From assembly GCF_054482525.1 (NCBI RefSeq), contig NZ_CM137006.1: DNA of 64,000 bases. One strand, given 5' to 3'. How positions within the stretch are numbered: position 1 is the first letter of the stretch; every line of letters starts with the position of its first letter. Shown in pieces: positions 3,156-39,224 of this stretch. The position numbers and the translations under genes are program-made. Below the pieces are notes generated by a model, which worked only from the letters and a program-made list of their open reading frames with translations, was not told the origin of the DNA and made no database searches.

Positions 3156-3785
3156 ATGACCCGCACACTCAAGCCGTTAATTCTTAACACCGGCGCACTG
3201 GCGCTAACATTAATCCTGATTTATACCGGCATTTCGGCCCATGACAAACTCACCTGGCTGATGGAAGTGACACCGGTGATTATTGTCGTGCCGCTACTGC
3301 TTGCCACCGCTAAACGTTATCCGTTAACGCCGCTGCTCTATACGCTCATTTTCTTTCACGCCATCATCCTGATGGTCGGCGGGCAATACACCTACGCGAA
3401 AGTCCCCGTTGGTTTTGAGGTGCAGGAATGGCTGGGGTTGAGCCGTAATCCGTATGACAAGCTGGGGCATTTTTTCCAGGGGCTGGTGCCTGCACTGGTG
3501 GCACGAGAGATCCTTGTGCGCGGGATGTACGTTCGCGGACGTAAAATGGTGGCGTTTCTGGTCTGCTGCGTGGCGCTGGCGATAAGCGCGATGTATGAAT
3601 TAATCGAGTGGTGGGCGGCGCTGGCAATGGGCCAGGGAGCGGATGATTTTCTCGGCACCCAGGGCGACCAGTGGGACACGCAATCCGATATGTTCTGCGC
3701 GCTGCTTGGCGCATTAACGACGGTGATATTCCTCGCTCGCTTTCATTGCCGCCAGCTACGGCGCTTTGGCTTGATAACCGGATAA
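3156..3785 (+). CDS. yjdF: Inner membrane protein YjdF, 209 aa
   Basis: ORF with multiple hydrophobic segments; position between fumB and melB. Confidence 0.8.
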   Translation: MTRTLKPLILNTGALALTLILIYTGISAHDKLTWLMEVTPVIIVVPLLLATAKRYPLTPLLYTLIFFHAIILMVGGQYTYAKVPVGFEVQEWLGLSRNPYDKLGHFFQGLVPALVAREILVRGMYVRGRKMVAFLVCCVALAISAMYELIEWWAALAMGQGADDFLGTQGDQWDTQSDMFCALLGALTTVIFLARFHCRQLRRFGLITG

Positions 3786-3799: not shown

Positions 3800-3900
3800 T
3801 TGATGCCGGATGCGGCGTGAATTCCTTATCCGGTCTACAAAATTTGCAAATCCAAAGCATTACATTAAGACGTGGCCTGATAAACATATCGCATCAGGCC
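3800..3900. repeat. REP/BIME palindromic units (gccggatgcggcgtgaattccttatccgg; ggcctgataaacatatcgcatcaggcc)
   Basis: Characteristic REP motifs in yjdF-melB intergenic region. Confidence 0.75.
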
Positions 3901-3923
3901 ATTTTCGTTAGCTATTGTCCACG

Positions 3924-5345
3924 TCAGGCTTTCACATCACTCACTGCACCGACCGGAATATCAGCATGAACAGGCTCGGGCGGTACTTTGCGATATTTAT
4001 CCAGCAGATGGATCTGGATCCTGCGCAGCGTGTCACCATTGAGGCGATAGAAACGGAAGTAGAGAATCAGCGTTACCATGAAAAACAGAGTCGGTAGAGC
4101 AATCATAATAAACTGCATACCTAATAGGGCTTGCGTAGACTGTTCAACATTCGGTACATAGCCAATCATCCCTAACACAACCGCAATGAAAAAAGCCGCA
4201 AAGGCTGAACCGCCCTTCACCACCATAGTCTGCACGGAGTAAGCGATGCTTTCACAGCGTACGTGCAGTTTATATTCACCGTAATCAACGGTATCTGCCA
4301 CCATGATGACCTGTAATACCCAGAAAAGCGCCGTTCCCACATTCAGCAAGATACCCGCAATCACAATGAGGACGACGTTGTGATAGCTCATTAATGCCAT
4401 TAACAGGAGAACACCACAGCTTAACACCGGAAGAATAGATGCTCCGGCCCATAAAATGCGTCGGGATAATGATTTAACTAAGCGTGGGAAGAATACTAAC
4501 GTCACCAGATTAGCAGCTCCCGCATACGACAGATAATAGGGGAACAAATCCGCATCACCGATAACATATGAGAAATAATAGATAGCAAAGCCGGTAATAA
4601 TATTGCTGGCTACATTATAAGCAAGAGCCATACCCAAGAGGCATGAAAGCTGATCGTTTTTATAAATAAGCGCAACGATGGCTTTAAGTGTCAGATGGCT
4701 TCCTTCAGCAGACGGTTGATTGTCTGACGAAAAGACTTCATGCACATTGCGCAGAGTGATGATGGTTGAAACAATAAAAAAGGCGATCAGTACCAGAGTG
4801 AACATCTGAAAGCCAAATCCCCGATCGCCACCGCCGACATAATTAACAAATGGTAGCGTCACACCTGCCGTAACAAAGCCCGCCAGACTGGCAAAAAAAC
4901 GCGGATAAGGAACCAGTTGTTCGCGCTCACGTTTATCGAGCGTTATGGTTGGAACCAGCGACCAGAAGGGAATATCCATAATGGTGTAAGTCATGCCCCA
5001 GAGGATGTAGGTCACGCAAACAAAGACAATCTGAGTAGTACCTTCAAACAGATGCGCACTAAAGAGGAGAAATAAGATTACAGAGTTTGCCAACGTACCG
5101 ATCAGGATCCAGGGTTTGAACTTACCCCATCGCGATCGCGTAGCATTTACAATCCATCCCATAATCGGATCGTTAATAGCATCCCAGATCCTCGCCACCA
5201 GAAACAAAGTACCGACCAAACCCACAGACAGCCCGACGACATCGGTGTAGTAATACATGAGGTACATATACACAATGCCGATCGCAAAATCCTTCCCGAA
5301 CGCTCCAAATCCATAACTGAGTTTTGTAGTCATTGAAATGCTCAT
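3924..5345 (-). CDS. melB: Melibiose:cation symporter MelB, 473 aa
   Basis: Translation begins [20 protein letters not shown]…; start chosen at the second in-frame ATG of the listed ORF to match MelB length. Confidence 0.92.
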
Positions 5346-19925: not shown

Positions 19926-20804
19926 TTACACCAAATTTACAGAGAAGATTTCCTCGACCATTGCCCCCGCCAGACGCTGCGCTGAACAGAGTCGTGGCAT
20001 CCCCAGTGCGACAGTTCGCCAGCGTTGGGTCACTGACCAGCAAACGGGTTGTTTATCTGCCGTGGACCACTTTCCCAGCCAACTTAAAAAATCAGCATGA
20101 TCCCCGCCCGTCGAAACGGTCGAAGAGGCAAACCACTGATGGTAATAGTGACGCGTGGTCGGGGCCGCATTGATACTCTCTGCCAGATGTTGTGTCGCTT
20201 TCACGCGCAAATCACCCAGCAACAACGCCACCGCTTGCGGGCTTCCCAGACGGCAGGCATCGCCAAATCCCCCCCAGCGCAACTCCTCCAGAACGATAAA
20301 ACAGCGCCCAGGCAACGACCAGGCGTTATACGCCCCAGCACGCCAGCGGGTAAAAATTTGCTCGCTCTGTTCACCCGCCTGCACCAGTAGGCCTCGTTGC
20401 GTTAACGCCTTTTCCTTCCAGCGACAACGGGCTGAAAACCACTCATACAAGGCGGCAATTTGCTGGGGGAGCTCAGGGAAAGCAGAGTGCTGGCGGTGAT
20501 CCATTTTTTGCAGCAGCGCCAGATGTTGCGCGATCTGCGTCAGCGCCAGATGACCGGGATCCAGCATCGAAGCCAGTTTTTCCACCAATGTCAGACGCAG
20601 GCTAAGCGGCGCATTTAACATCCCGCCGTTCGTCCATGCCTGAAGCTGCACACGCGCAAGAAGTTCCTGCATCAGTCGTTCACGAAACTGCTGCTGATGG
20701 GGTTGTGGATGGCGGACATCATCGCCCTGCGCCAGATCCACTAAAAAGCGCGGATGAACCGACTCCAGCACGCGACCGGGGCCGTCCAGTAACGTCTTGG
20801 TCAA
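19926..20804 (-). CDS. yjcZ: Uncharacterised protein YjcZ, 292 aa
   Basis: ORF immediately downstream of crfC, 4-bp overlap with crfC stop; matches K-12 yjcZ by position and length. Confidence 0.8.
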   Translation of the reverse strand: MTKTLLDGPGRVLESVHPRFLVDLAQGDDVRHPQPHQQQFRERLMQELLARVQLQAWTNGGMLNAPLSLRLTLVEKLASMLDPGHLALTQIAQHLALLQKMDHRQHSAFPELPQQIAALYEWFSARCRWKEKALTQRGLLVQAGEQSEQIFTRWRAGAYNAWSLPGRCFIVLEELRWGGFGDACRLGSPQAVALLLGDLRVKATQHLAESINAAPTTRHYYHQWFASSTVSTGGDHADFLSWLGKWSTADKQPVCWSVTQRWRTVALGMPRLCSAQRLAGAMVEEIFSVNLV

Positions 20805-23029
20805 TATCGTTCTGCCGTGAAAAGTGTTTGAATATCATCGCGTAACAGCTGAGCGTCGGTGTAAATCCAGCTGTGAGTCATCACAGCCTGCTGCAATTGC
20901 TGCTGCATCAGCCTGACCACCGATTCATTTTGTTGACGCAGAGCCAGGCTTTCGCGTAAACGCGTCTGTAATTCCGTCAAACATGAAGCGAACTCAGCGA
21001 AAAAAGTATTCATGCCTGCCGTAACAGATTCATCGACCTGCTCTGCCAGAACTTTAGCCATTTGTTGGCAATAAAGATCGACTTCTGCGCTTAATGCTCG
21101 TTGCAACACACTGTAATCAACCGTCTCTGTCGGGGATTTCTCATTTCCCCGTCCCCAGTCGGGCTGATTCAACCAGCGCGAAAAAGTCTCACGCACAACG
21201 CCTAAACGCGTGCTCTGCTCGTCCGTTGCTTCCTGGCGCGAAATGACTTCACTGAACAGCTGGCGAGTGTTGAAGTGGGGAACTGCGCCGTGAAAAACAG
21301 GAAAATGAAACCCAGGACGAAACCCTGACTCGCTCAATTCCATTTTGATTTGTTGCTCAATGGGCCGAATAACATCGGTTAACACCCGGCAAAGGGTGGA
21401 TTCCAGCTCGGCAAAACGCAGCGTAAAGTCGCGACTGATGGTGTTCTGCGCCGTCTGTAACAGTGTCTCACAGCGGGTACGAATCTCGCTTAACGGCTCC
21501 GAATCATCCTGAAACAAGGCGGCTAACTGCGCATTCAGCGCATCTTGCTGTTGACGCAGAAAGTGGTTGGCGGAGGTCAGGGCCAGCTCGATTTCATGTT
21601 TAATCTCGCCGCTCACCTGCGCCTGATTGAGTTGCAATAGCTGCAAACTTTCTTCGATCTGATGGATATTTTGCCGCAATTGTTCACAAGCGACGTTTAA
21701 CCCGTGCGCACGAAAATCCAGGTATTCCCGCGCCTGCTGCGCGTAATTCAACAGTTTATGCGCGGCAGATCGCAGAGCATACAACGAGGCGTTAGCGTAA
21801 GCGGCATGAAGCAACGCCTGAATTGGCTGGGCGAACAGCGAATCTTCCCACAACTGATCGGCAGCATGACGAATATGTTCGAGGTCCGCCAGATCGGCAT
21901 GACGCCAGCGCCTGCCGAGCGCGGCATGGGCAAAATCTTCCACCCAGCGTTGTTGCTCTGGCGGTGGTAACTTACCGTTGTTGGCTAACTCATGGCGCGC
22001 CCGATTCGCCAGGTAGCCCCACATCGACGACACCGGAAATATCTGCTGTGGCGTAATACAGCCTTTCATCAGCGTCCCGGAAATCAGTGCCCGCACCTGG
22101 TCGGCGTCGTCACTGTTACGATCCTGTTGATCGAACTTATTGACCAGCACATACAGCGGCACCGATTGCCCCACCGCCAAAATCGCCTCACGGACCTCTT
22201 CATCGGAGATCGATTTCAGTTGCGTATAATCCAGCACCGCCAGTACCGCCGAGGCGCGTGCCAGCTGCTGGTTAAGCATTTTTTGCAGATGCGGTTGCCC
22301 GGCTTCATTTGGCCCAGGGGTATCCAGTAACGTCAACTGACCGGGATAACTCTCCAGCCCCGCCAGATGGACAAACTCCACTTCAATCACGGGAATATAC
22401 TCAATGGCGGCGTAAGCAGAAAAAGGAAAATCGACGTCCAGCGCCTTCGCCAGTCGCACCAAATCATTCAAACTTTTCAGACAATGAAAAATAGGCTGGG
22501 CACCCAGATAATATTTTTCGAAAGCGACGCCATTTTCGATCCGCTGCATAAGCGCACGCATATCTTTATCTATTTCCAGCACATCGGTCAGATGCTTAAT
22601 ATCGCAATCACACAGGCGCTGTTGTAATTTTTGAATTAAACAATCGATTGGCGCGACATGTGAAAAATGCAGTACCGGTTCCTTTTGCCCGGGCGTATGG
22701 CGAATAAGCGTCGGCAGCGCAGTCATTGGGCGATTACGATTAGGCAAAACCTCCGTACCAACAATGGCATTAATGGTAGTTGATTTCCCTGCTTTCATGG
22801 TACCGACAATCGCCAGCACCATTTCCAGTCGGGAAATTTTACGCAACTCATTATTCAGCATCGCGTGACGTTCGGCGATATTAGGCTGACTCCAGGGTAA
22901 AGCCAGTTGTGGCGCATCGTCTCCGGGGACAGAGAGAGGCATTTTTTCCAGTAACTGCAACTGTTGGCGAGAAAGCTGTAACAGGCGTTCAGCCTCCTGA
23001 CTTAACTCATACAGGGTCTGTGTGTACAT
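20801..23029 (-). CDS. crfC: Dynamin-like GTPase CrfC (YjdA), 742 aa
   Basis: Large ORF with N-terminal P-loop (GTMKAGKST) GTPase domain; position between phnA and yjcZ. Confidence 0.85.
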   Translation of the reverse strand: MYTQTLYELSQEAERLLQLSRQQLQLLEKMPLSVPGDDAPQLALPWSQPNIAERHAMLNNELRKISRLEMVLAIVGTMKAGKSTTINAIVGTEVLPNRNRPMTALPTLIRHTPGQKEPVLHFSHVAPIDCLIQKLQQRLCDCDIKHLTDVLEIDKDMRALMQRIENGVAFEKYYLGAQPIFHCLKSLNDLVRLAKALDVDFPFSAYAAIEYIPVIEVEFVHLAGLESYPGQLTLLDTPGPNEAGQPHLQKMLNQQLARASAVLAVLDYTQLKSISDEEVREAILAVGQSVPLYVLVNKFDQQDRNSDDADQVRALISGTLMKGCITPQQIFPVSSMWGYLANRARHELANNGKLPPPEQQRWVEDFAHAALGRRWRHADLADLEHIRHAADQLWEDSLFAQPIQALLHAAYANASLYALRSAAHKLLNYAQQAREYLDFRAHGLNVACEQLRQNIHQIEESLQLLQLNQAQVSGEIKHEIELALTSANHFLRQQQDALNAQLAALFQDDSEPLSEIRTRCETLLQTAQNTISRDFTLRFAELESTLCRVLTDVIRPIEQQIKMELSESGFRPGFHFPVFHGAVPHFNTRQLFSEVISRQEATDEQSTRLGVVRETFSRWLNQPDWGRGNEKSPTETVDYSVLQRALSAEVDLYCQQMAKVLAEQVDESVTAGMNTFFAEFASCLTELQTRLRESLALRQQNESVVRLMQQQLQQAVMTHSWIYTDAQLLRDDIQTLFTAERY

Positions 23030-23925: not shown

Positions 23926-24369
23926 ATGCCGTTAAGTCCCTACCTCTCTTTTGCCGGTAACTGTGCCGACGCAATTGCTTATTATCAACGTACGTTGGGC
24001 GCTGAACTGCTCTATAAAATCAGCTTCGGCGAAATGCCAAAATCAGCGCAGGACAGCGCCGAGAACTGCCCTTCCGGAATGCAATTTCCCGATACCGCCA
24101 TCGCTCATGCCAACGTGCGCATTGCCGGAAGCGATATCATGATGAGCGATGCTATACCGTCAGGAAAAGCCAGCTACTCCGGCTTTACGCTGGTGCTCGA
24201 TTCGCAACAGGTCGAAGAAGGGAAACGCTGGTTTGACAATCTTGCCGCCAACGGAAAAATCGAAATGGCATGGCAGGAAACTTTCTGGGCGCATGGCTTC
24301 GGCAAAGTCACTGATAAATTTGGCGTACCGTGGATGATTAATGTCGTCAAACAACAACCAACGCAATAA
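23926..24369 (+). CDS. phnB: Glyoxalase/bleomycin-resistance fold protein PhnB (YjdN), 147 aa
   Basis: ORF upstream of phnC; matches K-12 phnB by position and length. Confidence 0.82.
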   Translation: MPLSPYLSFAGNCADAIAYYQRTLGAELLYKISFGEMPKSAQDSAENCPSGMQFPDTAIAHANVRIAGSDIMMSDAIPSGKASYSGFTLVLDSQQVEEGKRWFDNLAANGKIEMAWQETFWAHGFGKVTDKFGVPWMINVVKQQPTQ

Positions 24370-24404
24370 TCCGCCGGGAGGCCCGCCCTCCCGCACTGTC
24401 ATCG

Positions 24405-24465
24405 AATTCCCGTTAACTCTTCATCTGTTAGTCACTTTTAATTAACCAAATCGTCACAATAATCC
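24405..24465 (+). promoter_or_regulatory. phnC promoter region with probable Pho box (ctgttagtcacttttaattaaccaaatcgtcacaat)
   Basis: Direct-repeat TGTCA-like half sites with 11 bp periodicity upstream of phnC; PhoB control of phn operon is established; exact site boundaries inferred. Confidence 0.45.
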
Positions 24466-24501
24466 GCCACGATGGAGCCACTTTTTTAGGGAGTCTGCAT
24501 C

Positions 24502-25290
24502 ATGCAAACGATTATCCGTGTCGAGAAGCTCGCCAAAACCTTCAATCAGCATCAGGCGCTGCACGCGGTTGATCTGAACATTCATCACGGTGAAATGGTG
24601 GCTCTGCTTGGGCCGTCGGGTTCCGGCAAATCCACCCTTTTACGTCACTTAAGCGGTTTGATTACCGGCGATAAATCTGCCGGTAGCCATATCGAGCTGC
24701 TGGGCCGCACAGTCCAGCGCGAAGGCCGCCTGGCCCGCGATATCCGCAAAAGCCGCGCCAACACCGGCTACATCTTCCAACAATTCAACCTGGTGAATCG
24801 CCTGAGCGTACTGGAGAACGTGCTGATTGGCGCGCTCGGCAGCACGCCATTCTGGCGCACCTGTTTTAGCTACTTCACCCGCGAGCAGAAACAGCGCGCG
24901 TTACAGGCGCTGACCCGCGTTGGCATGGTGCATTTTGCCCATCAGCGCGTTTCCACCCTCTCCGGCGGACAGCAGCAGCGTGTGGCGATTGCCCGCGCGC
25001 TGATGCAGCAGGCGAAGGTGATTCTGGCGGACGAACCCATCGCCTCGCTGGACCCGGAATCAGCGCGCATCGTGATGGACACCCTGCGCGACATCAACCA
25101 GAACGACGGCATTACCGTGGTCGTCACGCTGCATCAGGTGGATTACGCCCTGCGCTACTGCGAACGCATCGTCGCCCTGCGCCAGGGGCACGTCTTCTAC
25201 GACGGCAGCAGCCAACAGTTTGATAACGAACGCTTTGATCATCTCTATCGCAGCATCAACCGCGTCGAAGAGAACGCGAAAGCTGCCTGA
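24502..25290 (+). CDS. phnC: Phosphonate ABC transporter ATP-binding protein PhnC, 262 aa
   Basis: Walker [13 protein letters not shown] signature LSGGQQQR. Confidence 0.93.
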
Positions 25291-25314
25291 CATCCCCATC
25301 ATTGAGGAAAACGA

Positions 25315-26331
25315 ATGAACGCTAAGATAATTGCCTCGCTGGCCTTCACCAGCATGTTCAGCCTCAGCACCCTGTTAAGCCCGGCGCACGCCGAAGAGCA
25401 GGAAAAGGCGTTGAATTTCGGCATTATTTCAACGGAATCACAGCAAAACCTGAAACCGCAATGGACGCCGTTCTTACAGGATATGGAGAAGAAGCTGGGC
25501 GTAAAGGTCAACGCCTTCTTTGCCCCGGACTACGCGGGCATTATCCAGGGGATGCGCTTCAATAAAGTGGATATCGCCTGGTACGGCAATCTGTCGGCGA
25601 TGGAAGCGGTGGATCGCGCCAACGGTCAGGTCTTCGCCCAGACGGTCGCGGCGGATGGATCGCCGGGTTACTGGAGCGTGTTGATCGTCAACAAAGATAG
25701 TCCGATCAACAACCTGAACGATCTGCTGGCGAAGCGTAAAGATCTCACCTTCGGCAATGGCGATCCTAACTCCACCTCTGGCTTCCTCGTCCCCGGCTAC
25801 TACGTCTTCGCCAAAAACAATATCTCCGCCAGCGACTTCAAGCGCACCGTCAACGCCGGGCATGAAACCAACGCGCTGGCCGTCGCCAACAAGCAGGTGG
25901 ATGTGGCGACCAACAACACCGAAAACCTCGACAAGCTGAAAACCTCCGCACCGGAGAAGCTCAAAGAACTGAAGGTGATCTGGAAATCGCCGCTGATCCC
26001 AGGCGATCCGATCGTCTGGCGCAAAAATCTGTCCGAAACCACCAAAGACAAGATCTACGACTTCTTTATGAACTACGGCAAAACGCCGGAAGAGAAAGCG
26101 GTGCTGGAGCGCCTGGGCTGGGCCCCGTTCCGCGCCTCCAGCGACCTGCAACTGGTGCCGATTCGCCAGCTCGCGCTGTTTAAAGAGATGCAGGGCGTGA
26201 AAGGCAATAAAGGGCTGAATGAGCAGGACAAGCTGGCAAAAACCACCGAGATTCAGGCGCAGCTGGATGACCTGGACCGCCTGAACAACACGTTAAGCGC
26301 GATGAGTTCGGTAAGTAAAGCGGTGCAGTAA
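25315..26331 (+). CDS. phnD: Phosphonate ABC transporter periplasmic binding protein PhnD, 338 aa
   Basis: Signal peptide then binding-protein fold; operon position. Confidence 0.92.
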   Translation: MNAKIIASLAFTSMFSLSTLLSPAHAEEQEKALNFGIISTESQQNLKPQWTPFLQDMEKKLGVKVNAFFAPDYAGIIQGMRFNKVDIAWYGNLSAMEAVDRANGQVFAQTVAADGSPGYWSVLIVNKDSPINNLNDLLAKRKDLTFGNGDPNSTSGFLVPGYYVFAKNNISASDFKRTVNAGHETNALAVANKQVDVATNNTENLDKLKTSAPEKLKELKVIWKSPLIPGDPIVWRKNLSETTKDKIYDFFMNYGKTPEEKAVLERLGWAPFRASSDLQLVPIRQLALFKEMQGVKGNKGLNEQDKLAKTTEIQAQLDDLDRLNNTLSAMSSVSKAVQ

Positions 26332-26334
26332 TGT

Positions 26335-26452
26335 GCTCGATCGGTCCCCTCTCCCTTGAGGGAGAGGGTTAGGGTGAGGGGGAAATGCGCACGCTGATGC
26401 CCTCACCCCGGCCCTCTCCCACAGGGAGAGGGAGAAAACATTAAACGGAGCA
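26335..26452. repeat. GC-rich palindromic intergenic repeat (Box C/RSA-like; units cccctctccc…gggagaggg and ccctcacccc)
   Basis: Read directly; a permuted inverted copy occurs at 35336..35490. Confidence 0.7.
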
Positions 26453-26456
26453 ATAT

Positions 26457-27236
26457 ATGCAAACCATCACCATCGCCCCACCCAAGCGCAGCTGGTTCGC
26501 GCTTCTGAGCTGGGCCATTGTTCTCGCCGTGCTGGTCGTCTCGTGGCAGGGCGCGGAAATGGCCCCGCTCACGCTGATTAAAGGCGGCGGCAACATGGCG
26601 ACGTTCGCCGCCGACTTCTTCCCGCCCGATTTCAGCCAGTGGCAGGATTACCTCACCGAAATGGCCGTCACGCTGCAAATCGCCGTCTGGGGCACCGCGC
26701 TGGCGGTGGTTCTCTCCATCCCCTTTGGCCTGATGAGCGCCGAAAACCTGGTGCCGTGGTGGGTTTACCAGCCCGTTCGCCGCCTGATGGACGCCTGCCG
26801 CGCCATTAACGAGATGGTCTTCGCCATGCTGTTCGTGGTCGCCGTCGGTCTCGGTCCGTTCGCTGGCGTACTGGCGCTGTTTATCCACACCACCGGCGTG
26901 CTCTCCAAACTGCTTTCCGAAGCGGTAGAAGCAATTGAACCCGGCCCGGTGGAAGGTATTCGCGCCACCGGTGCCAACAAGCTCGAAGAGATCCTCTACG
27001 GCGTGCTGCCGCAGGTGATGCCGCTGCTGATCTCCTACTCCCTCTATCGCTTCGAATCCAACGTCCGTTCGGCCACCGTTGTTGGCATGGTCGGCGCGGG
27101 CGGGCTCGGCGTCACCCTGTGGGAAGCGATTCGCGGTTTCCAGTTCCAGCAAACCTGCGCCCTGATGGTGCTGATTATCGTCACTGTCAGCCTGCTGGAT
27201 TTCCTCTCTCAACGGTTGCGTAAGCACTTTATCTGA
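26457..27236 (+). CDS. phnE: Phosphonate ABC transporter permease PhnE, uninterrupted 259 aa ORF
   Basis: Continuous ORF with EAA-type permease region; no frameshift seen. Confidence 0.88.
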
Positions 27237-27256
27237 TAAGCGAGGCATTGATAGCT

Positions 27257-27982
27257 ATGCACTTGTCTACACATCCGACCAGCTACCCAACACGCTATCA
27301 GGAGATAGCCGCAAAACTTGAGCAGGAGCTTCGTCAACACTACCGCTGCGGCGACTATCTTCCCGCCGAGCAGCAACTGGCGGCGCGCTTTGAGGTGAAC
27401 CGCCACACCCTGCGCCGCGCCATCGACCAACTGGTGGAAAAAGGCTGGGTACAGCGCCGTCAGGGCGTCGGCGTGCTGGTGCTGATGCGCCCGTTCGATT
27501 ACCCGCTCAACGCCCAGGCGCGTTTTAGCCAGAACCTGCTGGATCAGGGCAGCCATCCCACCAGCGAAAAACTGCTGTCTGTGCTGCGCCCGGCCTCCGG
27601 TCACGTCGCTGACGCGCTGGGGATAACCGAAGGCGAGAACGTTATCCACCTGCGCACCCTGCGCCGGGTCAACGGCGTCGCGCTCTGTTTAATCGACCAC
27701 TACTTTGCGGACCTCACCCTCTGGCCGACGCTGCAACGCTTCGACAGCGGCTCGCTGCACGATTTTCTGCGCGAGCAAACGGGGATTGCGCTGCGCCGCA
27801 GCCAGACGCGGATCAGCGCCCGCCGCGCCCAGGCCAAAGAGTGCCAGCGTCTTGAAATCCCGAATATGTCGCCGCTGCTGTGCGTGCGCACCCTTAACCA
27901 CCGTGACGGTGAAAGCAGCCCGGCGGAGTACTCCGTCAGCCTGACGCGCGCCGACATGATTGAATTCACTATGGAGCACTGA
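27257..27982 (+). CDS. phnF: GntR-family repressor PhnF, 241 aa
   Basis: N-terminal winged HTH, UTRA-like C-terminus; start at MHLSTHP. Confidence 0.9.
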   Translation: MHLSTHPTSYPTRYQEIAAKLEQELRQHYRCGDYLPAEQQLAARFEVNRHTLRRAIDQLVEKGWVQRRQGVGVLVLMRPFDYPLNAQARFSQNLLDQGSHPTSEKLLSVLRPASGHVADALGITEGENVIHLRTLRRVNGVALCLIDHYFADLTLWPTLQRFDSGSLHDFLREQTGIALRRSQTRISARRAQAKECQRLEIPNMSPLLCVRTLNHRDGESSPAEYSVSLTRADMIEFTMEH

Positions 27983-28435
27983 ATGCACGCAGATACCGCG
28001 ACCCGCCAGCACTGGATGTCCGTACTGGCACACAGCCAACCGGCTGAACTGGCAGCCCGCCTGAAGGCGCTGAACATCACTGCCGACTATGAAGTAATCC
28101 GCGCCGCTGAAACCGGCCTGGTGCAGATTCAGGCGCGGATGGGTGGCACCGGCGAACGCTTTTTTGCTGGCGACGCCACGCTCACCCGCGCCGCCGTACG
28201 CCTGACTGACGGCACGCTCGGCTACAGCTGGGTGCTGGGGCGCGACAAACAGCACGCCGAACGCTGCGCGCTGATCGACGCGCTGATGCAGCAAACCCGC
28301 CATTTTCAAAACTTATCAGAAACTCTTATTGCCCCGCTGAACGCTGACCGTATGGCACGCATTGCCGCACGCCAGGCCGAAGTAAACGCCAGCCGGGTCG
28401 ACTTCTTTACGATGGTTCGCGGAGATAACGCATGA
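27983..28435 (+). CDS. phnG: C-P lyase core complex subunit PhnG, 150 aa
   Basis: Operon position and length; start abuts phnF stop. Confidence 0.9.
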
Positions 28436-29016
28436 CCCTGGAAACCGCTTTTATGCTTCCCGTGCAGGATGCCCAGCACAGTTTTCGTCGCCTGTTAAAG
28501 GCCATGAGCGAGCCGGGCGTGATTGTCGCCCTGCATCAGCTCAAGCGCGGCTGGCAGCCGCTGAATATCGCCACCACCAGCGTGCTGCTGACGCTGGCCG
28601 ATAACGACACGCCGGTGTGGCTTTCTGCGCCATTAAGTAACGATATCGTCAGCCAGAGCCTGCGTTTTCATACCAACGCGCCGCTGGTCAGCCAGCCGGA
28701 ACTGGCGACCTTCGCGGTAACGGATGAGGCGATTTCCAGCGAACAGCTCAACGCTCTTTCCAGCGGCACCGCTGTTGCGCCGGAAGCGGGCGCGACGCTG
28801 ATTTTACAGGTCGTCAGCCTGAGCGGCGGGCGCATGCTGCGCCTTACTGGCGCGGGTATTGCCGAAGAACGAATGATCGCTCCGCAGCTGCCGGAGTGCA
28901 TTCTGCACGAACTCACCGAGCGCCCGCACCCGTTCCCGCTCGGCATCGACCTGATCCTGACCTGCGGCGAGCGGCTGCTGGCTATCCCGCGAACCACTCA
29001 TGTGGAGGTGTGCTGA
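28432..29016 (+). CDS. phnH: C-P lyase core complex subunit PhnH, 194 aa
   Basis: 4-bp overlap with phnG; operon position. Confidence 0.9.
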
Positions 29017-30080
29017 TGTACGTTGCCGTGAAAGGGGGCGAGAAGGCGATCGACGCCGCCCACGCCCTGCAAGAGAGCCGACGCCGGGGCAATACCGATT
29101 TGCCTGAACTGAGCGTCGCCCAGATTGAACAGCAGCTTAACCTTGCGGTGGATCGCGTGATGACCGAAGGCGGCATTGCCGACCGCGAACTGGCGGCGCT
29201 GGCGCTGAAACAGGCCAGCGGCGATAACGTCGAAGCGATTTTCCTGCTGCGCGCCTACCGCACCACGCTGGCGAAGCTCGCGGTAAGCGAGCCGCTCGAC
29301 ACCACGGAGATGCGCTTCGAACGGCGTATTTCAGCGGTTTATAAAGATATTCCCGGCGGTCAGTTGCTTGGCCCAACCTACGACTACACCCATCGCCTGC
29401 TCGATTTCACCCTGCTGGCAAACGGCGAAGCGCCGACGCTGACCACCGCCGACAGCGCACAACAGCCGTCGCCGCACGTTTTCAGCCTGCTGGCGCGTCA
29501 GGGGCTGGCGAAGTTTGAGGAGGATAGCGGCGCACAGCCGGATGACATCACCCGCACGCCGCCGGTTTACCCCTGCTCACGCTCCTCCCGCCTGCAACAA
29601 TTAATGCGCGGGGACGAAGGCTATTTGCTGGCGCTGGCCTACTCCACCCAGCGTGGTTACGGGCGCAATCACCCGTTCGCGGGCGAGATCCGCAGTGGCT
29701 ATATCGACGTGTCTATTGTGCCGGAAGAGCTGGGATTTGCGGTGAACGTCGGCGAACTGCTGATGACCGAATGTGAAATGGTCAACGGTTTTATCGACCC
29801 GCCGGATGAGCCGCCGCACTTCACGCGCGGCTACGGACTGGTGTTCGGCATGAGCGAGCGCAAAGCGATGGCAATGGCGCTGGTTGACCGTGCGTTGCAG
29901 GCTCCGGAGTACGGCGAGCACGCGACAGGCCCGGCGCAGGATGAAGAGTTCGTGCTGGCGCATGCCGACAACGTCGAAGCCGCAGGCTTTGTCTCGCACC
30001 TCAAACTCCCCCACTACGTCGATTTCCAGGCCGAACTGGAGCTACTCAAATGTCTGCAACAGGAGCAGAACCATGGCTAA
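29016..30080 (+). CDS. phnI: C-P lyase subunit PhnI (ribosyl-triphosphate forming), 354 aa
   Basis: Start at ATG 29016 ([16 protein letters not shown]…), overlapping phnH stop; the listed ORF starts at an upstream GTG. Confidence 0.9.
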   Translation: MYVAVKGGEKAIDAAHALQESRRRGNTDLPELSVAQIEQQLNLAVDRVMTEGGIADRELAALALKQASGDNVEAIFLLRAYRTTLAKLAVSEPLDTTEMRFERRISAVYKDIPGGQLLGPTYDYTHRLLDFTLLANGEAPTLTTADSAQQPSPHVFSLLARQGLAKFEEDSGAQPDDITRTPPVYPCSRSSRLQQLMRGDEGYLLALAYSTQRGYGRNHPFAGEIRSGYIDVSIVPEELGFAVNVGELLMTECEMVNGFIDPPDEPPHFTRGYGLVFGMSERKAMAMALVDRALQAPEYGEHATGPAQDEEFVLAHADNVEAAGFVSHLKLPHYVDFQAELELLKCLQQEQNHG

Positions 30081-30918
30081 TCTGAGCGGCTACAACTTTG
30101 CTTACCTCGACGAGCAGACCAAACGCATGATCCGCCGCGCCATCTTAAAAGCGGTGGCGATCCCCGGTTATCAGGTGCCGTTTGGCGGGCGCGAGATGCC
30201 GATGCCGTACGGCTGGGGAACTGGTGGTATCCAGCTAACCGCCAGCGTGATTGGCGAAAGCGACGTGTTGAAGGTGATTGACCAGGGCGCGGATGACACC
30301 ACCAACGCCGTGTCGATTCGCAACTTCTTTAAGCGCGTGACCGGGGTAAACACCACTGAACGTACGGACGATGCGACGCTTATCCAGACGCGCCACCGCA
30401 TCCCCGAAACGTCGCTGACCGAAGATCAGATCATTATTTTCCAGGTACCGATCCCCGAACCGATGCGCTTTATCGAGCCGCGCGAAACGGAGACCCGCAC
30501 TATGCACGCGCTGGAGGAGTACGGCGTGATGCAGGTGAAGCTGTATGAAGATATCGCCCGCTTCGGTCATATCGCCACCACCTATGCCTATCCGGTGAAG
30601 GTGAACGGGCGCTACGTGATGGACCCGTCGCCGATCCCGAAATTCGATAACCCGAAAATGGACATGATGCCCGCCCTGCAACTGTTCGGCGCGGGGCGCG
30701 AGAAGCGCATCTATGCGGTGCCGCCGTTTACCCGCGTGGAAAGCCTCGATTTCGACGATCACCCGTTCACCGTTCAGCAGTGGAATGAGCCATGCGCCAT
30801 CTGCGGATCGACCCACAGCTATCTTGATGAAGTGGTGCTGGATGACGCCGGAAACCGCATGTTTGTCTGCTCCGATACCGATTATTGCCGCCAACAGAGC
30901 GAGGCGAAAAGCCAATGA
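30073..30918 (+). CDS. phnJ: C-P lyase catalytic subunit PhnJ (radical SAM-like, Cys-rich C-terminus), 281 aa
   Basis: MANLSGYNFAYLDEQTKRMIRRA…; C-terminal CxxC…C…C cluster. Confidence 0.92.
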   Translation: MANLSGYNFAYLDEQTKRMIRRAILKAVAIPGYQVPFGGREMPMPYGWGTGGIQLTASVIGESDVLKVIDQGADDTTNAVSIRNFFKRVTGVNTTERTDDATLIQTRHRIPETSLTEDQIIIFQVPIPEPMRFIEPRETETRTMHALEEYGVMQVKLYEDIARFGHIATTYAYPVKVNGRYVMDPSPIPKFDNPKMDMMPALQLFGAGREKRIYAVPPFTRVESLDFDDHPFTVQQWNEPCAICGSTHSYLDEVVLDDAGNRMFVCSDTDYCRQQSEAKSQ

Positions 30919-31673
30919 ATCAACCGTTACTTTCGGTCAATAACCTGACCCACCTTTACGCGCCGGGCAAAGGCTTTAGCGATGTCTCTTTTGATTTATG
31001 GCCGGGGGAAGTGCTGGGCATTGTCGGGGAGTCCGGCTCCGGGAAGACCACGCTGCTGAAATCAATCTCCGCGCGCCTGACGCCGCAGCAGGGGGAGATT
31101 CGCTATGAAAACCGCTCCCTCTATGGCATGAGCGAAGCCGACCGCCGCCGTTTACTGCGCACCGAATGGGGCGTGGTACATCAGCATCCGCTCGACGGCC
31201 TGCGCCGCCAGGTGTCGGCAGGCGGCAATATCGGCGAGCGGCTGATGGCGACCGGGGCGCGTCATTACGGCGACATCCGCGCCACCGCGCAGAAGTGGCT
31301 GGAGGAGGTGGAGATTCCCTCCAACCGGATCGACGACCTGCCGACCACCTTTTCCGGCGGTATGCAGCAACGTTTGCAGATTGCCCGCAACCTGGTGACG
31401 CATCCGAAGCTGGTGTTTATGGACGAGCCAACCGGCGGGCTGGATGTATCGGTACAGGCGCGCCTGCTCGATCTGCTGCGCGGTCTGGTGGTGGAGCTGA
31501 ATCTGGCGGTGGTGATTGTCACCCACGATCTGGGCGTCGCCCGCCTGCTGGCGGACCGTTTGCTGGTGATGAAACAGGGGCAAGTGGTGGAGAGTGGGTT
31601 AACCGACCGCGTGCTCGACGACCCGCATCATCCGTATACCCAGCTGCTGGTGTCATCGGTTTTGCAGAATTGA
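30915..31673 (+). CDS. phnK: ABC-type ATPase PhnK, 252 aa
   Basis: Walker [10 protein letters not shown]; start at [15 protein letters not shown]. Confidence 0.9.
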
Positions 31674-31677
31674 GCCA

Positions 31678-31765
31678 GTGCCGGATACGGCGTAAACGCC
31701 TTATCCGGCCGACAAATGCGCTCCCCGTAGGTCGGATAAGACGCGTCAGCGTCGCATCCGACACC
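31678..31765. repeat. REP/BIME cluster inside phn operon (between phnK and phnL)
   Basis: gccggatacggcgtaaacgccttatccggcc and gtaggtcggataagacgcgtcagcgtcgcatccgac palindromes. Confidence 0.8.
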
Positions 31766-31783
31766 CGAACCACGAGGCGAAAA

Positions 31784-32464
31784 ATGATTAACGTACAAAA
31801 CGTCAGTAAAACCTTCATCCTGCACCAGCAAAACGGCGTGCGCCTGCACGTCTTACAACGTGCCTCGCTCACCGTCAACGCAGGCGAATGCGTGGTGCTC
31901 CACGGCCACTCCGGCAGTGGAAAATCAACCCTGCTACGCTCGCTGTACGCCAACTATCTGCCCGATGAAGGTCAAATCCAGATCAAACACGGTGATGAGT
32001 GGGTAGACCTGATCACCGCGCCAGCCCGCAAAGTGGTGGAGATCCGCAAAACCACCATCGGCTGGGTGAGCCAGTTTCTGCGCGTCATCCCGCGTATTTC
32101 GGCACTGGAAGTGGTGATGCAGCCTCTGCTCGATACCGGCGTACCGCGTGAAGCCTGCGCCGCTAAAGCCGCGCGTCTGCTCACCCGCCTGAACGTGCCT
32201 GAACGCCTGTGGCACCTGGCACCATCGACCTTCTCCGGCGGCGAACAGCAGCGCGTCAACATCGCCCGTGGCTTTATCGTCGACTATCCGATTCTGCTGC
32301 TCGACGAACCTACCGCCTCGCTGGACGCTAAAAACAGCGCCGCCGTAGTGGAACTGATCCGCGAAGCCAAAGCCCGCGGCGCGGCCATCGTCGGTATCTT
32401 CCATGACGAAGCCGTACGCAATGACGTCGCCGACCGCCTGCACCCGATGGGAGCCTCTTCATGA
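31784..32464 (+). CDS. phnL: ABC-type ATPase PhnL, 226 aa
   Basis: [11 protein letters not shown]…, Walker [10 protein letters not shown]; start at ATG 31784. Confidence 0.9.
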
Positions 32465-33597
32465 TTATCAATAACGTCAAACTGGTGCTGGAAAATGAAG
32501 TGGTGCACGGTTCACTGGAAGTACAGGATGGCGAAATTCGGGCCTTTGCCGAAAGCCAGAGCCGCCAGCCGGAAGCGATGGACGGCGAAGGTGGCTGGCT
32601 ACTGCCCGGACTGATTGAGCTGCATACCGACAACCTCGATAAATTCTTCACCCCGCGCCCGAAAGTCGACTGGCCCGCCCATTCGGCGATGAGCAGCCAC
32701 GACGCGCTGATGGTGGCAAGCGGCATCACCACCGTACTGGACGCCGTGGCGATTGGTGATGTGCGCGACGGCGGCGATCGGCTGGAGAATCTGGAGAAGA
32801 TGATCAACGCCATCGAAGAGACGCAGAAACGCGGCGTCAACCGCGCCGAGCACCGCCTGCACCTGCGCTGCGAACTGCCGCACCACACCACGTTGCCGCT
32901 GTTTGAAAAACTGGTGCAGCGCGAACCGGTGACGCTGGTATCGCTGATGGACCACTCGCCAGGCCAGCGCCAGTTCGCCAATCGCGAGAAGTATCGCGAA
33001 TATTATCAGGGCAAATATTCCCTCACCGATGCGCAGATGCAGCAGTACGAAGAAGAGCAATTGGCGCTCGCCGCACGCTGGTCGCAGCCAAATCGCGAAA
33101 CCATCGCCGCAATGTGCCGCGCGCGACACATTGCCCTCGCCAGCCACGATGACGCCACGCACGCCCACGTTGCCGAATCTCACCAGCTTGGCAGCGTGAT
33201 CGCCGAATTTCCCACCACGTTCGAAGCGGCAGAAGCCTCGCGCAAGCATGGCATGAACGTGCTGATGGGCGCGCCGAATATCGTGCGCGGCGGTTCGCAC
33301 TCCGGCAACGTGGCGGCCAGTGAACTGGCGCAGCTTGGCCTGCTGGATATCCTCTCTTCCGACTACTACCCCGCCAGCCTGCTCGATGCGGCATTTCGCG
33401 TCGCCGATGACGAGAGCAACCGCTTTACGCTGCCGCAGGCGGTGAAGCTGGTGACTAAAAATCCGGCGCAGGCGCTTAATCTTCAGGATCGCGGAGTGAT
33501 TGGCGAGGGCAAACGCGCCGACCTGGTGCTGGCGCATCGCAAGGGCAACCACATTCATATCGACCACGTCTGGCGTCAGGGTAAAAGGGTGTTCTGA
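32461..33597 (+). CDS. phnM: Amidohydrolase-family PhnM (ribosyl-triphosphate diphosphohydrolase), 378 aa
   Basis: Metal-dependent hydrolase motifs (HTD…); operon position. Confidence 0.9.
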
Positions 33598-34154
33598 TGA
33601 CGGGAAAACTGATTTGGTTAATGGGGGCCTCTGGCTCCGGAAAAGACAGTCTGTTGACGGAACTTCGCCAGCGGGAACAAACTCAGCTACTGGTAGCGCA
33701 TCGCTACATCACGCGCGCCGCCAGCGCCGGAAGTGAAAACCATATCGCCCTGAGCGAGCAGGAGTTTTTTACCCGCGCGGGGCAGAACCTTCTGGCCTTA
33801 AGCTGGCACGCTAACGGTCTGTATTATGGCGTCGGCGTCGAGATTGACCTCTGGCTGCACGCCGGATTCGACGTGCTGGTCAACGGCTCACGCGCGCATT
33901 TGCCGCAGGCGCGGGCGCGCTATCAATCGGCGCTGCTGCCCATTTGCTTACAGGTTTCGCCGGAGATCCTGCGCCAGCGCCTGGAAAACCGTGGTCGTGA
34001 AAACGCCAGTGAAATTAACGCCCGGCTGGCGCGCGCCGCCCGCTATACTCCTCAGGATTGCCATACGCTCAATAATGACGGCAGCCTGCGCCAGTCGGTC
34101 GACACGCTGCTGACGCTGATTCATCAGAAGGAGAAACACCATGCCTGCTTGTGA
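33597..34154 (+). CDS. phnN: Ribose 1,5-bisphosphate phosphokinase PhnN, 185 aa
   Basis: P-loop GASGSGKDS; operon position. Confidence 0.9.
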
Positions 34155-34575
34155 GCTTCGCCCGGCCACGCAGTACGATACCGACGCAGTGTACGCGCTG
34201 ATTTGTGAGCTAAAACAGGCGGAGTTTGACCACCACGCGTTTCGCGTGGGCTTTAACGCCAACCTGCGCGACCCGAACATGCGCTACCATCTGGCGCTGC
34301 TGGATGGCGAAGTTGTCGGCATGATCGGCCTGCATTTGCAGTTTCATCTGCATCATGTCAACTGGATCGGCGAAATTCAGGAACTGGTGGTGATGCCGCA
34401 GGCGCGCGGTCTGAATGTCGGCAGTAAATTACTGGCATGGGCAGAAGAAGAAGCCCGCCAGGCCGGGGCCGAAATGACCGAGCTTTCCACCAACGTGAAG
34501 CGCCACGACGCGCACCGTTTCTATCTGCGCGAAGGCTACGAGCAGAGCCACTTCCGCTTCACCAAGGCGCTGTAA
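34141..34575 (+). CDS. phnO: GNAT aminoalkylphosphonate N-acetyltransferase PhnO, 144 aa
   Basis: GNAT-like motifs; 14-bp overlap with phnN. Confidence 0.9.
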
Positions 34576-34576
34576 C

Positions 34577-35335
34577 ATGAGCCTGACCCTCACACTTACT
34601 GGCACTGGCGGCGCACAGGGCGTTCCGGCATGGGGCTGCGAGTGCGTGGCCTGCGCCAGAGCGCGGCGCTCACCGCAGTATCGCCGCCAGCCATGCAGCG
34701 GCGTCGTGAAGTTTAACGACGCGATCACCCTGATCGACGCCGGGCTGCACGATCTCGCCGATCGCTGGTCGCCCGGATCGTTCCAGCAGTTTTTGCTGAC
34801 GCACTACCATATGGATCACGTGCAGGGGCTGTTTCCGCTGCGCTGGGGTGTGGGCGATTCGATCCCGATCTACGGCCCGCCGGATGAACAGGGCTGCGAC
34901 GATCTGTTTAAACATCCGGGCCTGCTTGATTTCAGCCACACGATGGAACCGTTTGTGGTGTTTGATTTACAGGGGTTACAGGTCACGCCCCTGCCGCTCA
35001 ACCACTCAAAACTGACCTTCGGTTATCTGCTGGAAACGGCACACAGCCGGGTGGCGTGGCTGTCTGACACCGCTGGCTTGCCGGAAAAAACGCTGAAATT
35101 TTTACGCAATAATCAGCCGCAGGTAATGGTGATTGATTGCAGCCACCCGCCGCGCGAGGATGCACCGCGTAATCACTGTGATTTAAATACCGTGCTTGCG
35201 CTGAATCAGGTTATCCGCTCGCCACGGGTGATTCTGACCCATATCAGCCACCAGTTTGATGCGTGGCTGATGGAAAACGCACTGCCGTCGGGGTTTGAGG
35301 CGGGGTTTGATGGGATGGAGATTGGGGTGGCGTGA
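34577..35335 (+). CDS. phnP: Metallo-beta-lactamase-fold phosphodiesterase PhnP, 252 aa
   Basis: HxHxDH motif ([10 protein letters not shown]). Confidence 0.9.
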
Positions 35336-35490
35336 TGGGAGGGAATGTGCGCGCTGGCCCCCTCACCCTAACCCTCTCCCCAGAGGGGCGAGGGGACCGA
35401 TTGTGCTCGATATTGAATATTGCGCTGGTTTTCTCCCTCGCCCCATTGGGGAGAGGGCCGGGGTGAGGGGCGATGCCTGCTCCATACCCA
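35336..35490. repeat. GC-rich palindromic intergenic repeat, inverted and module-permuted relative to 26335..26452
   Basis: Shares cccctcaccc / ccctctcccc / gggagaggg / gtgctcgat modules with the phnD-phnE repeat. Confidence 0.7.
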
Positions 35491-35493
35491 ACA

Positions 35494-35823
35494 TCAACGC
35501 CCATACTCATCTTCCATTCTCCGCTCTTCATCTTCTAGCTGCCGACGCTCCTGATCCAGCTGGCGCTGGCGATCGTCCAGCTGCCTGCGGCGATCTTCAA
35601 ACTGGCGGCGGCGATCGTCATATTGTCTGCGCCGATCGTCGTTCACTTCACGCTGCCAGCCGTCGTCGCGCGAATCTTCATAGTCTCGCCCACGGTCAGG
35701 GTTATAAGCGTCGTTAATCGCCTGCTGAATATTGCCAATGGTGTCGTCGATAATATCGGCCTGGGCCGGAACGGTGGACAGCGTGAGCAGGGTGAATAAA
35801 AGAAATAGCGGAAAGCGTTTCAT
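35494..35823 (-). CDS. yjdP: Small secreted Arg/Asp/Glu-rich protein YjdP, 109 aa
   Basis: Signal peptide MKRFPLFLLFTLLTLSTVPAQA followed by charged low-complexity RRRQ repeats. Confidence 0.8.
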   Translation of the reverse strand: MKRFPLFLLFTLLTLSTVPAQADIIDDTIGNIQQAINDAYNPDRGRDYEDSRDDGWQREVNDDRRRQYDDRRRQFEDRRRQLDDRQRQLDQERRQLEDEERRMEDEYGR

Positions 35824-35891
35824 TAGCCAACCTCAAAAAGAAACTCTATCCACATTAGTCATTACTCATCCATGCAAGTAGTGGATGAATC

Positions 35892-36226
35892 TCAATTTCT
35901 CCGCTGCTCTATTGCCGTAATCGCCTCCACGCGTTGTTGATGACGACCGCCTTCGTACTGCGCGCCCAGCCACGCATCCACAATCATTTTTGCCAGTTCG
36001 AGGCCAACCACTCGTGAACCAAAAGCCAGTGCAACTTCACTGGCGTAATGCGGATAATCAGTACGCTCTGACGACCTGGTTTCTTTATCAATCCCCTCAC
36101 TCATTGACCATGAATAAAAGGCTGGCACAGCAACGCAGAATCCTGCGGTGCCAGCGACATGACCGCCCATTGCTCCGGTACGTTTTTTAATAAAAAACAC
36201 CGGTTGCATTGATTAATTGTGCTCAG
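35892..36226 (-). pseudogene. rpiB: rpiB (ribose-5-phosphate isomerase B) remnant: C-terminal about 67 codons recognisable, internal segment missing, 5-prime part unrelated
   Basis: Translation ends …AFGSRVVGLELAKMIVDAWLGAQYEGGRHQQRVEAITAIEQRRN which I recognise as the RpiB C-terminus; …SSERTDYPHYAS… is also present, but the segment between (with the catalytic Cys) is absent and the N-terminal 38 codons do not resemble RpiB. Confidence 0.5.
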
Positions 36227-36241
36227 GGTAATGACTCCAAC

Positions 36242-36745
36242 TTATTGATAGTGTTTTATGTTCAGATAATGCCCGATGACTTTGTCATGCAGCTCCACCG
36301 ATTTTGAGAACGACAGCGACTTCCGTCCCAGCCGTGCCAGGTGCTGCCTCAGATTCAGGTTATGCCGCTCAATTCGCTGCGTATATCGCTTGCTGATTAC
36401 GTGCAGCTTTCCCTTCAGGCGGGATTCATACAGCGGCCAGCCATCCGTCATCCATATCACCACGTCAAAGGGTGACAGCAGGCTCATAAGACGCCCCAGC
36501 GTCGCCATAGTGCGTTCACCGAATACGTGCGCAACAACCGTCTTCCGGAGACTGTCATACGCGTAAAACAGCCAGCGCTGGCGCGATTTAGCCCCGACAT
36601 AGCCCCACTGTTCGTCCATTTCCGCGCAGACGATGACGTCACTGCCCGGCTGTATGCGCGAGGTTACCGACTGCGGCCTGAGTTTTTTAAGTGACGTAAA
36701 ATCGTGTTGAGGCCAACGCCCATAATGCGGGCAGTTGCCCGGCAT
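36242..36745 (-). CDS. insB: IS1 InsB frame, 167 aa (expressed as InsAB-prime transposase by -1 frameshift)
   Basis: Translation matches IS1 InsB; overlaps insA 3-prime end around the ttaaaaaactc slippery motif. Confidence 0.9.
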
Positions 36746-36939
36746 CCAACGCCATTCATGGCCATATCAATGATTTTCTGGTGCGTACCGGGTTGAGAAG
36801 CGGTGTAAGTGAACTGCAGTTGCCATGTTTTACGGCAGTGAGAGCAGAGATAGCGCTGATGTCCGGCGGTGCTTTTGCCGTTACGCACCACCCCGTCAGT
36901 AGCTGAACAGGAGGGACAGCTGATAGAAACAGAAGCCAC
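36664..36939 (-). CDS. insA: IS1 InsA, 91 aa
   Basis: [43 protein letters not shown]… zinc-finger/HTH protein of IS1. Confidence 0.92.
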
Positions 36940-37238
36940 TGGAGCACCTCAAAAACACCATCATACACTAAATCAGTAAGTTGGCAGCATCACCTGTGCT
37001 CAGTATTTGCCGAAGTACAATATATATAATAAATATATAAAACACCTCATATTATTTACAGAGATAATAAATTCGCGTACTTTTCCCTCTTCAGCACAAA
37101 TGCCTAATAAAGTGGCGCGTTCAGCTCACACTTCTACTTATTAAAGTCGCAATTTCCCAATTATGATAACGCCAGCTTTAAATGACGTATTTTGCATGGA
37201 TTACATATTTACGACATAAATGATAAATGGAGATTTAT

Positions 37239-39224
37239 ATGAATAACTCTCGGTTATTCCGTTTGAGCAGGATTGTTATTGCGTTAACTGCCGCCAGCGG
37301 CATGATGGTAAATACCGCTTACGCAACAGATGAAGCGAAAGCCGCCACTCAATATACCCAACAGATTAATCAGAATTACGCCAAATCATTACCTTTTAGC
37401 GATCGTCAAGATTTTGACGATGCCCAGCGTGGATTTATCGCTCCGCTGCTGGATGAAGGTATTCTGCGTGATGCTAACGGCAAAGTTTACTACCGCGCAG
37501 ACGATTACAAATTTGATATTAATGCCGCTGCGCCGGAAACCGTAAACCCCAGCCTGTGGCGTCAGTCGCAAATCAACGGTATTTCTGGCCTGTTCAAAGT
37601 CACCGATAAAATGTATCAGGTGCGCGGCCAGGATATCTCTAACATTACGTTCGTTGAGGGCGAGAAAGGCATTATTGTTATCGACCCGCTGGTGACGCCG
37701 CCTGCCGCAAAAGCCGCACTTGATCTTTACTTCCAGCATCGTCCGCAAAAACCGATTGTTGCTGTGATTTACACCCACAGCCACGCCGACCATTATGGCG
37801 GTGTGAAAGGCATTATCTCTGAAGCGGATGTTAAATCCGGCAAAGTGCAGGTGATCGCTCCGGCAGGCTTTATGGACGAAGCCATCAGCGAAAACGTGCT
37901 GGCGGGTAACATCATGAGCCGCCGTGCGCTCTACTCTTACGGTCTGTTACTGCCGCACAACGCGCAAGGCAACGTGGGCAACGGCCTGGGCGTGACGCTG
38001 GCAACCGGCGACCCGAGCATTATTGCACCGACTAAAACTATCGTCAGAACTGGCGAGAAGATGATTATCGACGGCCTGGAGTTTGACTTCCTGATGACTC
38101 CGGGTAGCGAAGCGCCAGCCGAAATGCACTTCTATATTCCGGCCCTGAAAGCCCTGTGTACCGCCGAGAACGCCACGCATACCCTGCACAACTTCTACAC
38201 TCTGCGCGGCGCGAAAACCCGCGATACCAGCAAGTGGACCGAGTACCTGAACGAAACGCTGGATATGTGGGGTAACGACGCGGAAGTACTGTTTATGCCG
38301 CACACCTGGCCGGTCTGGGGCAATAAGCATATCAATGATTATATTGGTAAATATCGCGATACTATCAAGTACATTCACGACCAGACCCTGCACCTGGCGA
38401 ACCAGGGCTACACCATGAATGAAATCGGCGACATGATTAAGCTGCCGCCTGCGCTTGCCAATAACTGGGCCAGCCGCGGCTATTACGGTTCTGTCAGCCA
38501 CAACGCCCGCGCGGTGTATAACTTCTATCTTGGCTATTACGACGGTAACCCGGCTAACCTGCATCCATATGGTCAGGTGGAGATGGGTAAACGTTACGTG
38601 CAAGCTCTGGGCGGTTCTGCCCGCGTCATCAACCTGGCGAAAGAAGCGAACAAGCAAGGTGATTATCGCTGGTCGGCAGAACTGCTGAAACAGGTGATTG
38701 CCGCCAACCCTGGTGACCAGGTCGCGAAGAATCTGCAAGCGAATAACTTTGAACAGCTGGGCTATCAGGCCGAGTCCGCCACCTGGCGCGGTTTCTACCT
38801 GACCGGCGCGAAAGAGCTGCGCGAAGGGGTGCATAAATTCAGCCACGGCACCACCGGTTCCCCGGACACCATTCGCGGAATGTCGGTCGAAATGCTGTTC
38901 GACTTTATGTCCGTTCGCCTCGATAGTGCGAAAGCCGCGGGTAAAAATATCAGCCTGAACTTCAATATGAGCAACGGCGATAACCTCAACCTGACGCTGA
39001 ACGATAGCGTGCTTAACTACCGTAAAACGCTGCAACCTGAAGCCAACGCCTCTTTCTACATCAGCCGTGAAGATCTTCACGCCGTGCTGACCGGACAAGC
39101 CAAAATGGCGGATCTGGTAAAAGCGAAGAAAGCCAAAATTATTGGCAATGGCGCGAAACTGGAAGAAATTATTGCCTGTCTGGATAATTTCGATTTGTGG
39201 GTGAATATCGTAACCCCAAATTAA
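37239..39224 (+). CDS. yjcS: Metallo-beta-lactamase-fold alkyl/aryl-sulfatase YjcS, 661 aa
   Basis: Signal peptide, [10 protein letters not shown] metal-binding motif, C-terminal SCP2-like region; start at MNNSRLF. Confidence 0.88.

Follow-up and report, generated by a model that had tools for sequence, protein, structure and literature searches.

The phnE gene of an Escherichia coli strain close to PCN033 is an uninterrupted reading frame with two copies of the 8-bp repeat

PhnCDE is a PhoB-controlled ABC importer for phosphonates and is also used for phosphate uptake. The DNA stretch analyzed here (hereafter the window; 64,000 nucleotides of contig NZ_CM137006.1) carries the genes for this importer and for the C-P lyase pathway side by side on the plus strand. 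The genes for the ATP-binding subunit, phnC (24502–25290, 262 aa), and for the periplasmic phosphonate-binding protein, phnD (25315–26331, 338 aa), lie directly upstream of phnE (26457–27236), which encodes the membrane permease subunit. Downstream are phnF for a GntR-type regulator (27257–27982, 241 aa) and the C-P lyase pathway genes phnGHIJKLMNOP (27983–35335), namely, phnG (27983–28435), phnH (28432–29016), phnI (29016–30080), phnJ (30073–30918), phnK (30915–31673), phnL (31784–32464), phnM (32461–33597), phnN (33597–34154), phnO (34141–34575), and phnP (34577–35335). Twelve of the 14 phn products scored above the NCBIfam equivalog cut-offs over their full length, including PhnC (NF007438, 606.3 bits; cut-off, 365), PhnD (TIGR03431, 376.4 bits; cut-off, 261.1), and PhnF (NF007486, 518.6 bits; cut-off, 363), and PhnI and PhnJ matched the Pfam families PF05861 and PF06007, respectively. 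The layout of the operon is the same as that annotated in E. coli PCN033. The original prediction had called the phnCDEFGHIJKLMNOP operon otherwise complete, and all 14 genes proved to be full length by NCBIfam and Pfam.

In the list of open reading frames, phnE is a single uninterrupted ORF of 259 codons with an ATG start (a CDS of 780 bp). Reading of the sequence placed a TAA codon of the same frame at 26442–26444, 12 nt 5' of the ATG, and a Shine-Dalgarno GGAG at 26447–26450. This stop codon makes a longer in-frame start impossible, and the RefSeq annotation of PCN033 phnE gives a CDS of the same 780 bp with the same start. A frameshift concealed by a longer upstream start, which had been named as the way in which the ORF might mislead, was thereby excluded. 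PhnE scored 308.7 bits against the PhnE equivalog TIGR01097 (cut-off, 216.7 bits), with residues 16–258 aligned to profile positions 8–251 of 252, and 92.9 bits against Pfam PF00528 (BPD_transp_1; gathering score, 26.4), and it therefore belongs to both families. The translation contains an EAA coupling loop, E166-G-I-R-A-T-G172 ... L184-P185, the spacing of which fits EAA-x3-G-x9-I-x-LP. The gene also has the expected neighbors of a C-P lyase operon, with phnC and phnD directly upstream and phnF–P downstream. This ORF is a genuine conserved gene and not a chance ORF.

An AlphaFold model of PhnE had a mean pLDDT of 86.5, and its best PDB matches in Foldseek were MetI and other type I ABC importer permeases. 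MetI shares the fold and the EAA coupling loop with PhnE of the window (3tui_A, E = 6e-7, TM 0.66/0.78) and was also its best sequence match in phmmer (E = 2.8e-6). By contrast, the sequence identity to MetI and the type I importer permeases is only about 20%, and these permeases have another substrate and another binding protein. There was no PhnE structure among the PDB matches of the model.

To locate the 8-bp repeat tract, phnE was aligned with its counterparts from K-12 MG1655, PCN033, and SW071611, and the units were extracted with a regex pattern. The tract of the window lies at 26862–26877 on the plus strand and consists of two units, GCTGGCGT ACTGGCGC, which span codons 136–141 (AGVLAL); the tract of PCN033 is the same. 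K-12 MG1655 has three units, GCTGGCGT GCTGGCGT GCTGGCGC, and its phnE bears the RefSeq flag "frameshifted", as does phnE of SW071611, which has four units. The locus and gene order of K-12 are like those of the window, and the promoter and Pho-box region is essentially identical, but the extra GCTGGCGT in K-12 shifts the frame at around codon 139, and the K-12 reading frame stops after 189 aa, ahead of the EAA coupling loop. The window lacks this extra unit. Thus, phnE is uninterrupted here because the 8-bp unit is present in two and not three copies, and the allele is not the cryptic K-12 type with three units and a +8 frameshift. The ORF list, the upstream TAA, the TIGR01097 score, and the K-12 alignment all bear out the earlier claim of one uninterrupted 259-codon ORF, and the copy count that had been proposed as a check gave two units in the window and three in K-12.

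These observations agree with the published genetics of the locus. The Phn-negative state of K-12 is caused by an 8-bp duplication (PMC3463581), and the 8-bp deletion in K-12 phnE results from slippage between direct repeats (PMC4759930). Loss of GCTGGCGT at nt 407–414 restores PhnCDE transport in K-12, where the system is cryptic through the insertion, whereas E. coli B and BL21 are phnE+ (PMC6469041). Reversible phase variation and frequent loss of 8 bp in K-12 phnE have also been described (PMC6469041, PMC3463581, PMC4759930).

From 26300 to 27400, the window shares 99.9% identity with PCN033, as against 95.6% with K-12. The closest genome is thus that of the phylogroup-D-like strain PCN033, not K-12, and the strain is also close to 19KM1776. 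Across 20000–44999 of the window, there were only seven SNPs relative to PCN033 in approximately 24 kb, together with one 768-bp IS1 insertion. The non-MG1655 background claimed by the original prediction is therefore correct, and the strain is not a K-12 derivative. At the DNA level, phnE of PCN033 (WP_001193490.1) differs from that of the window by a single base (nt 26584), which gives Asp43 in PCN033 and Gly43 in the window, and the two strains share both an A-interrupted form of the repeat tract and a nested intergenic palindrome. The functional two-unit phnE allele of E. coli B and of K-12 Phn+ revertants was reportedly described by Makino et al. in 1991 and by Iqbal et al. in 2004. More recently, Stasi et al. 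(2019; PMC6469041) dealt with the functional phnE+ of E. coli B, BL21, and K-12 revertants. The window resembles phnE+ of E. coli B/BL21 and the K-12 Phn+ revertant in its 259-codon ORF, two repeat units, operon, and promoter, but its second unit has A in place of G at the first position, and its protein carries D43G in addition to A15, I21, and L217. The last three residues are variants of the lineage, and I217L, which is found in the PhnE of the closest lineage, falls at a nearly invariant Ile. Sampled two-unit alleles of the phnE+ type differ from the protein of the window at 3–5 of 259 residues.

Upstream of phnC, in the PhoB-dependent promoter region, the Pho-box-like sequence CTGTTAGTCACTTTTAATTAAC (24425–24446, plus strand) is identical to that of K-12 MG1655; the whole yjdN–phnC intergenic region (24371–24501) has two bases that differ from K-12, and CTGTTAGTCACTTTTAATTAAC contains neither of them. 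CTGTTAGTCACTTTTAATTAAC agrees poorly with the generic consensus CTGTCATAWAWCTGTCAY. We take it to be the Pho box of phnC, which Makino et al. are said to have described in 1991. The Pho box placed upstream of the operon by the original prediction is accordingly present as a sequence identical to that in K-12.

The spacer between phnD and phnE (26332–26456) contains a nested palindromic element (26345–26435, plus strand) that folds into a stable hairpin, the predicted RNA fold of 26329–26460 having an energy of −72.8 kcal/mol (z = −7.46 relative to shuffled sequences). Strains have at least three forms of this spacer. K-12 and a B2-like strain carry a REP-like form, a second form is a short hairpin, and in the third, which is that of the window and PCN033, an insert of 64 nt is nested within the short hairpin. 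No Rfam family was found in 24000–37500, a range that includes the spacer hairpin. By analogy with the REP elements between malE and malF, the hairpin could set the ratio of PhnD to PhnE expression.

Taken together, the features of the locus suggest how phosphonate use would proceed in this strain. With two repeat units, translation runs on from AGVLAL, where a transmembrane helix starts, into the EAA loop (E166–P185) and on through the last transmembrane helices. The third unit of K-12 shifts the frame and yields the 189-aa product without the loop that docks the ATPase PhnC, and for this reason K-12 stays Phn-negative until slippage removes one unit. Under phosphate limitation, PhoB would activate the phnC promoter, PhnD would hand phosphonate to a PhnE dimer energized by PhnC, and the C-P lyase proteins would then release phosphate. 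Because phnC, phnD, phnF–P, and the promoter are intact as well, the strain is expected to import and cleave phosphonates without reversion. PhnE is likely active, and judging from the sequence, we hold it to be highly probable that this phnE is the wild-type, in-frame allele and that the strain is Phn+ without reversion. The earlier expectation of a Phn+ strain that does not need slipped-strand reversion is thus supported, as a prediction, by the intact frame, the two units, the full operon, and the conserved promoter. Methylphosphonate and 2-aminoethylphosphonate would be used without a prior reversion mutation, and import of phosphate by PhnCDE may also be possible.

An intact phnE in E. 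coli is known biology, described between 1991 and 2004, to which the present allele adds nothing; its practical value lies in strain typing and the annotation of metabolic models. Slightly more informative are three by-products of the analysis, namely, a census of tract states in 5,426 genomes, a synonymous change that interrupts the repeat in one lineage, and the singleton D43G.

The census covered 5,426 complete RefSeq E. coli genomes and used short megablast queries, in which a 28-base exact word can match one tract state only. Approximately 1,500 genomes missed by the first queries were flank variants, either B1-type (GGACCG...TATTT) or O157-type (GCTGGTGT), and were counted with two further queries. 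Two units were present in the common G form in 2,463 of the 5,426 genomes, with B1-type flanks in a further 658 to 1,201 (a range that reflects one-mismatch matches overlapping the G-form count), in the O157 form GCTGGTGTGCTGGCGC in 309, and in the A form of the window in 408 (7.5%), PCN033 among them. Two-unit tracts thus amount to 3,838–4,381 of the 5,426 genomes (about 71–81%). The three-unit state of K-12 was found in 997 genomes (18.4%), and 14 had at least four units, of which 12 had four and one (strain 2013C-4974) had ten; a one-unit tract was found in none of the 5,426 complete genomes. Judging from names and genome sizes in sampled rows, K-12 laboratory derivatives make up perhaps a third to half of the three-unit genomes, and the remaining ones in these rows came from pigs, chickens, people, and sheep. 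A functional phnE has already been reported for most E. coli (PMC6469041). Possession of an intact phnE is normal for E. coli and does not set this strain apart.

Other rearrangements of phnE were also encountered. In FDAARGOS_943, an 83-bp deletion between two CCGTTCGC repeats ends at the left boundary of the 8-bp tract, and PhnE proteins in the databases include in-frame deletions of 25 and 18 aa and duplications of 25 and 54 aa. A junction query for the 75-bp in-frame deletion of phnE gave no match, although masking may have hidden matches. phnE seems to be prone to several slippage and deletion events.

The one base that separates this phnE from that of PCN033 lies in codon 43 (26583–26585, plus strand), which is GGC (Gly) in the window owing to the private change at nt 26584 and GAC (Asp) in the other E. 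coli alleles examined. Asp43 was found in all 10 other intact E. coli PhnE alleles sampled and in all 116 of the aligned cluster representatives that were at least 72% identical. An exact-sequence look-up among approximately 15 billion proteins returned the G43 protein (WP_458911826.1) from a single 5.14-Mb contig and its D43 parent from 330 contigs; this look-up, together with the one mismatch against the best-matching genome, identifies G43 as a singleton. A 39-nt query centered on the G43 codon had no match, and the low-complexity filter of BLAST could mask GGCGGCGGC. Conservation among close homologs at first suggested that D43G is damaging. This idea was weakened by a set of 150 representatives of 50%-identity clusters, mostly 30–50% identical to the query, in which Gly was the commonest residue at this column whether the query carried G or D. 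In the AlphaFold model, residue 43 is located outside the membrane core, past the first transmembrane helix, where two short helices are separated by a break, and the pLDDT is only 60–65 around residues 31–50. D43G is a private substitution of recent origin and has yet to be tested by selection. It could alter the activity of the transporter.

An intact ORF might nevertheless encode an impaired transporter, in which D43G, possibly together with the private A326T in PhnD (nt 26290, relative to PCN033; outside the TIGR03431 core, in the C-terminal tail), weakens the folding of PhnE or the docking of PhnD and leaves the strain Phn-negative or leaky by missense. The invariance of Asp43 in the 116 close representatives and 10 E. 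coli alleles and the confinement of G43 to one contig speak for this reading, as does the fact that natural isolates repeatedly inactivate phnE by other routes. Two of the seven SNPs relative to PCN033 over approximately 24 kb are also non-synonymous and located in the transporter genes phnD and phnE, but a case for selection cannot be built on two SNPs. Moreover, distant homologs most commonly have Gly at this column, the residue sits outside the membrane core in a low-confidence segment between short helices, and the TIGR01097 score of the whole protein is far above the cut-off. We therefore consider impairment unlikely. It is also conceivable that the unit count or the base in codon 43 is an artefact of sequencing or assembly, given that short tandem repeats and single bases are open to miscalls and that G43 is a singleton. 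However, an 8-bp unit is unlike an error of the homopolymer type, the identical two-unit tract occurs in PCN033 and 407 other genomes, and elsewhere in the window only a few clean SNPs and one IS1 separate the sequence from PCN033, so that an artefact is extremely improbable.

Because A replaces G at the first position of the second unit in the window, a synonymous change of GTG to GTA at Val138, the two units of the A form agree at 6 of 8 periodic positions (GCTGGCGT / ACTGGCGC), compared with 7 of 8 in the G form; the tracts are GCTGGCGTACTGGCGC in the A form and GCTGGCGTGCTGGCGC in the G form. The phnE locus varies in unit number among isolates, with 2, 3, 4, and 10 units observed. Expansions of the uninterrupted G-form unit to at least three units occurred in approximately 1,011 genomes, beside approximately 3,100–3,700 two-unit genomes of the G form, and a three-unit derivative of the A form was found in none of the 5,426 genomes, though 408 carry the A form. 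The window might have captured a reversible slipped-strand switch in its ON phase, with OFF three-unit variants present at appreciable frequency, and in that case "intact" would describe the sequenced clone only. The natural polymorphism of the tract is in keeping with this idea, as are the reversible phase variation and frequent 8-bp slippage loss in the K-12 literature. The limited agreement between the units of the window and the lack of any three-unit derivative beside the 408 A-form genomes argue against it, and we regard such a switch as very unlikely here. Instead, the counts fit an A form that is less prone to slippage, although this is a lead only and the genome counts are not phylogenetically independent. 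Going further, the phnE slippage switch may be naturally "locked-ON" in the allele of the window, a tentative proposal that we ourselves find rather unlikely. Should it survive correction for common descent, it would mean that slippage can no longer turn off phosphonate uptake in one lineage of E. coli.

Two further differences from PCN033 lie outside the phn genes. The IS1 copy at 36227–36994 (768 bp), which is absent from PCN033, is located downstream of phnP, with an rpiB/lacA-family gene on one side and yjcS on the other, and is flanked by the 9-bp duplication TGTGCTCAG. On the minus strand, crfC (20801–23029) is an intact ORF of 742 aa in the window; crfC of PCN033 has an internal stop at nt 21643, the site of one of the seven SNPs.
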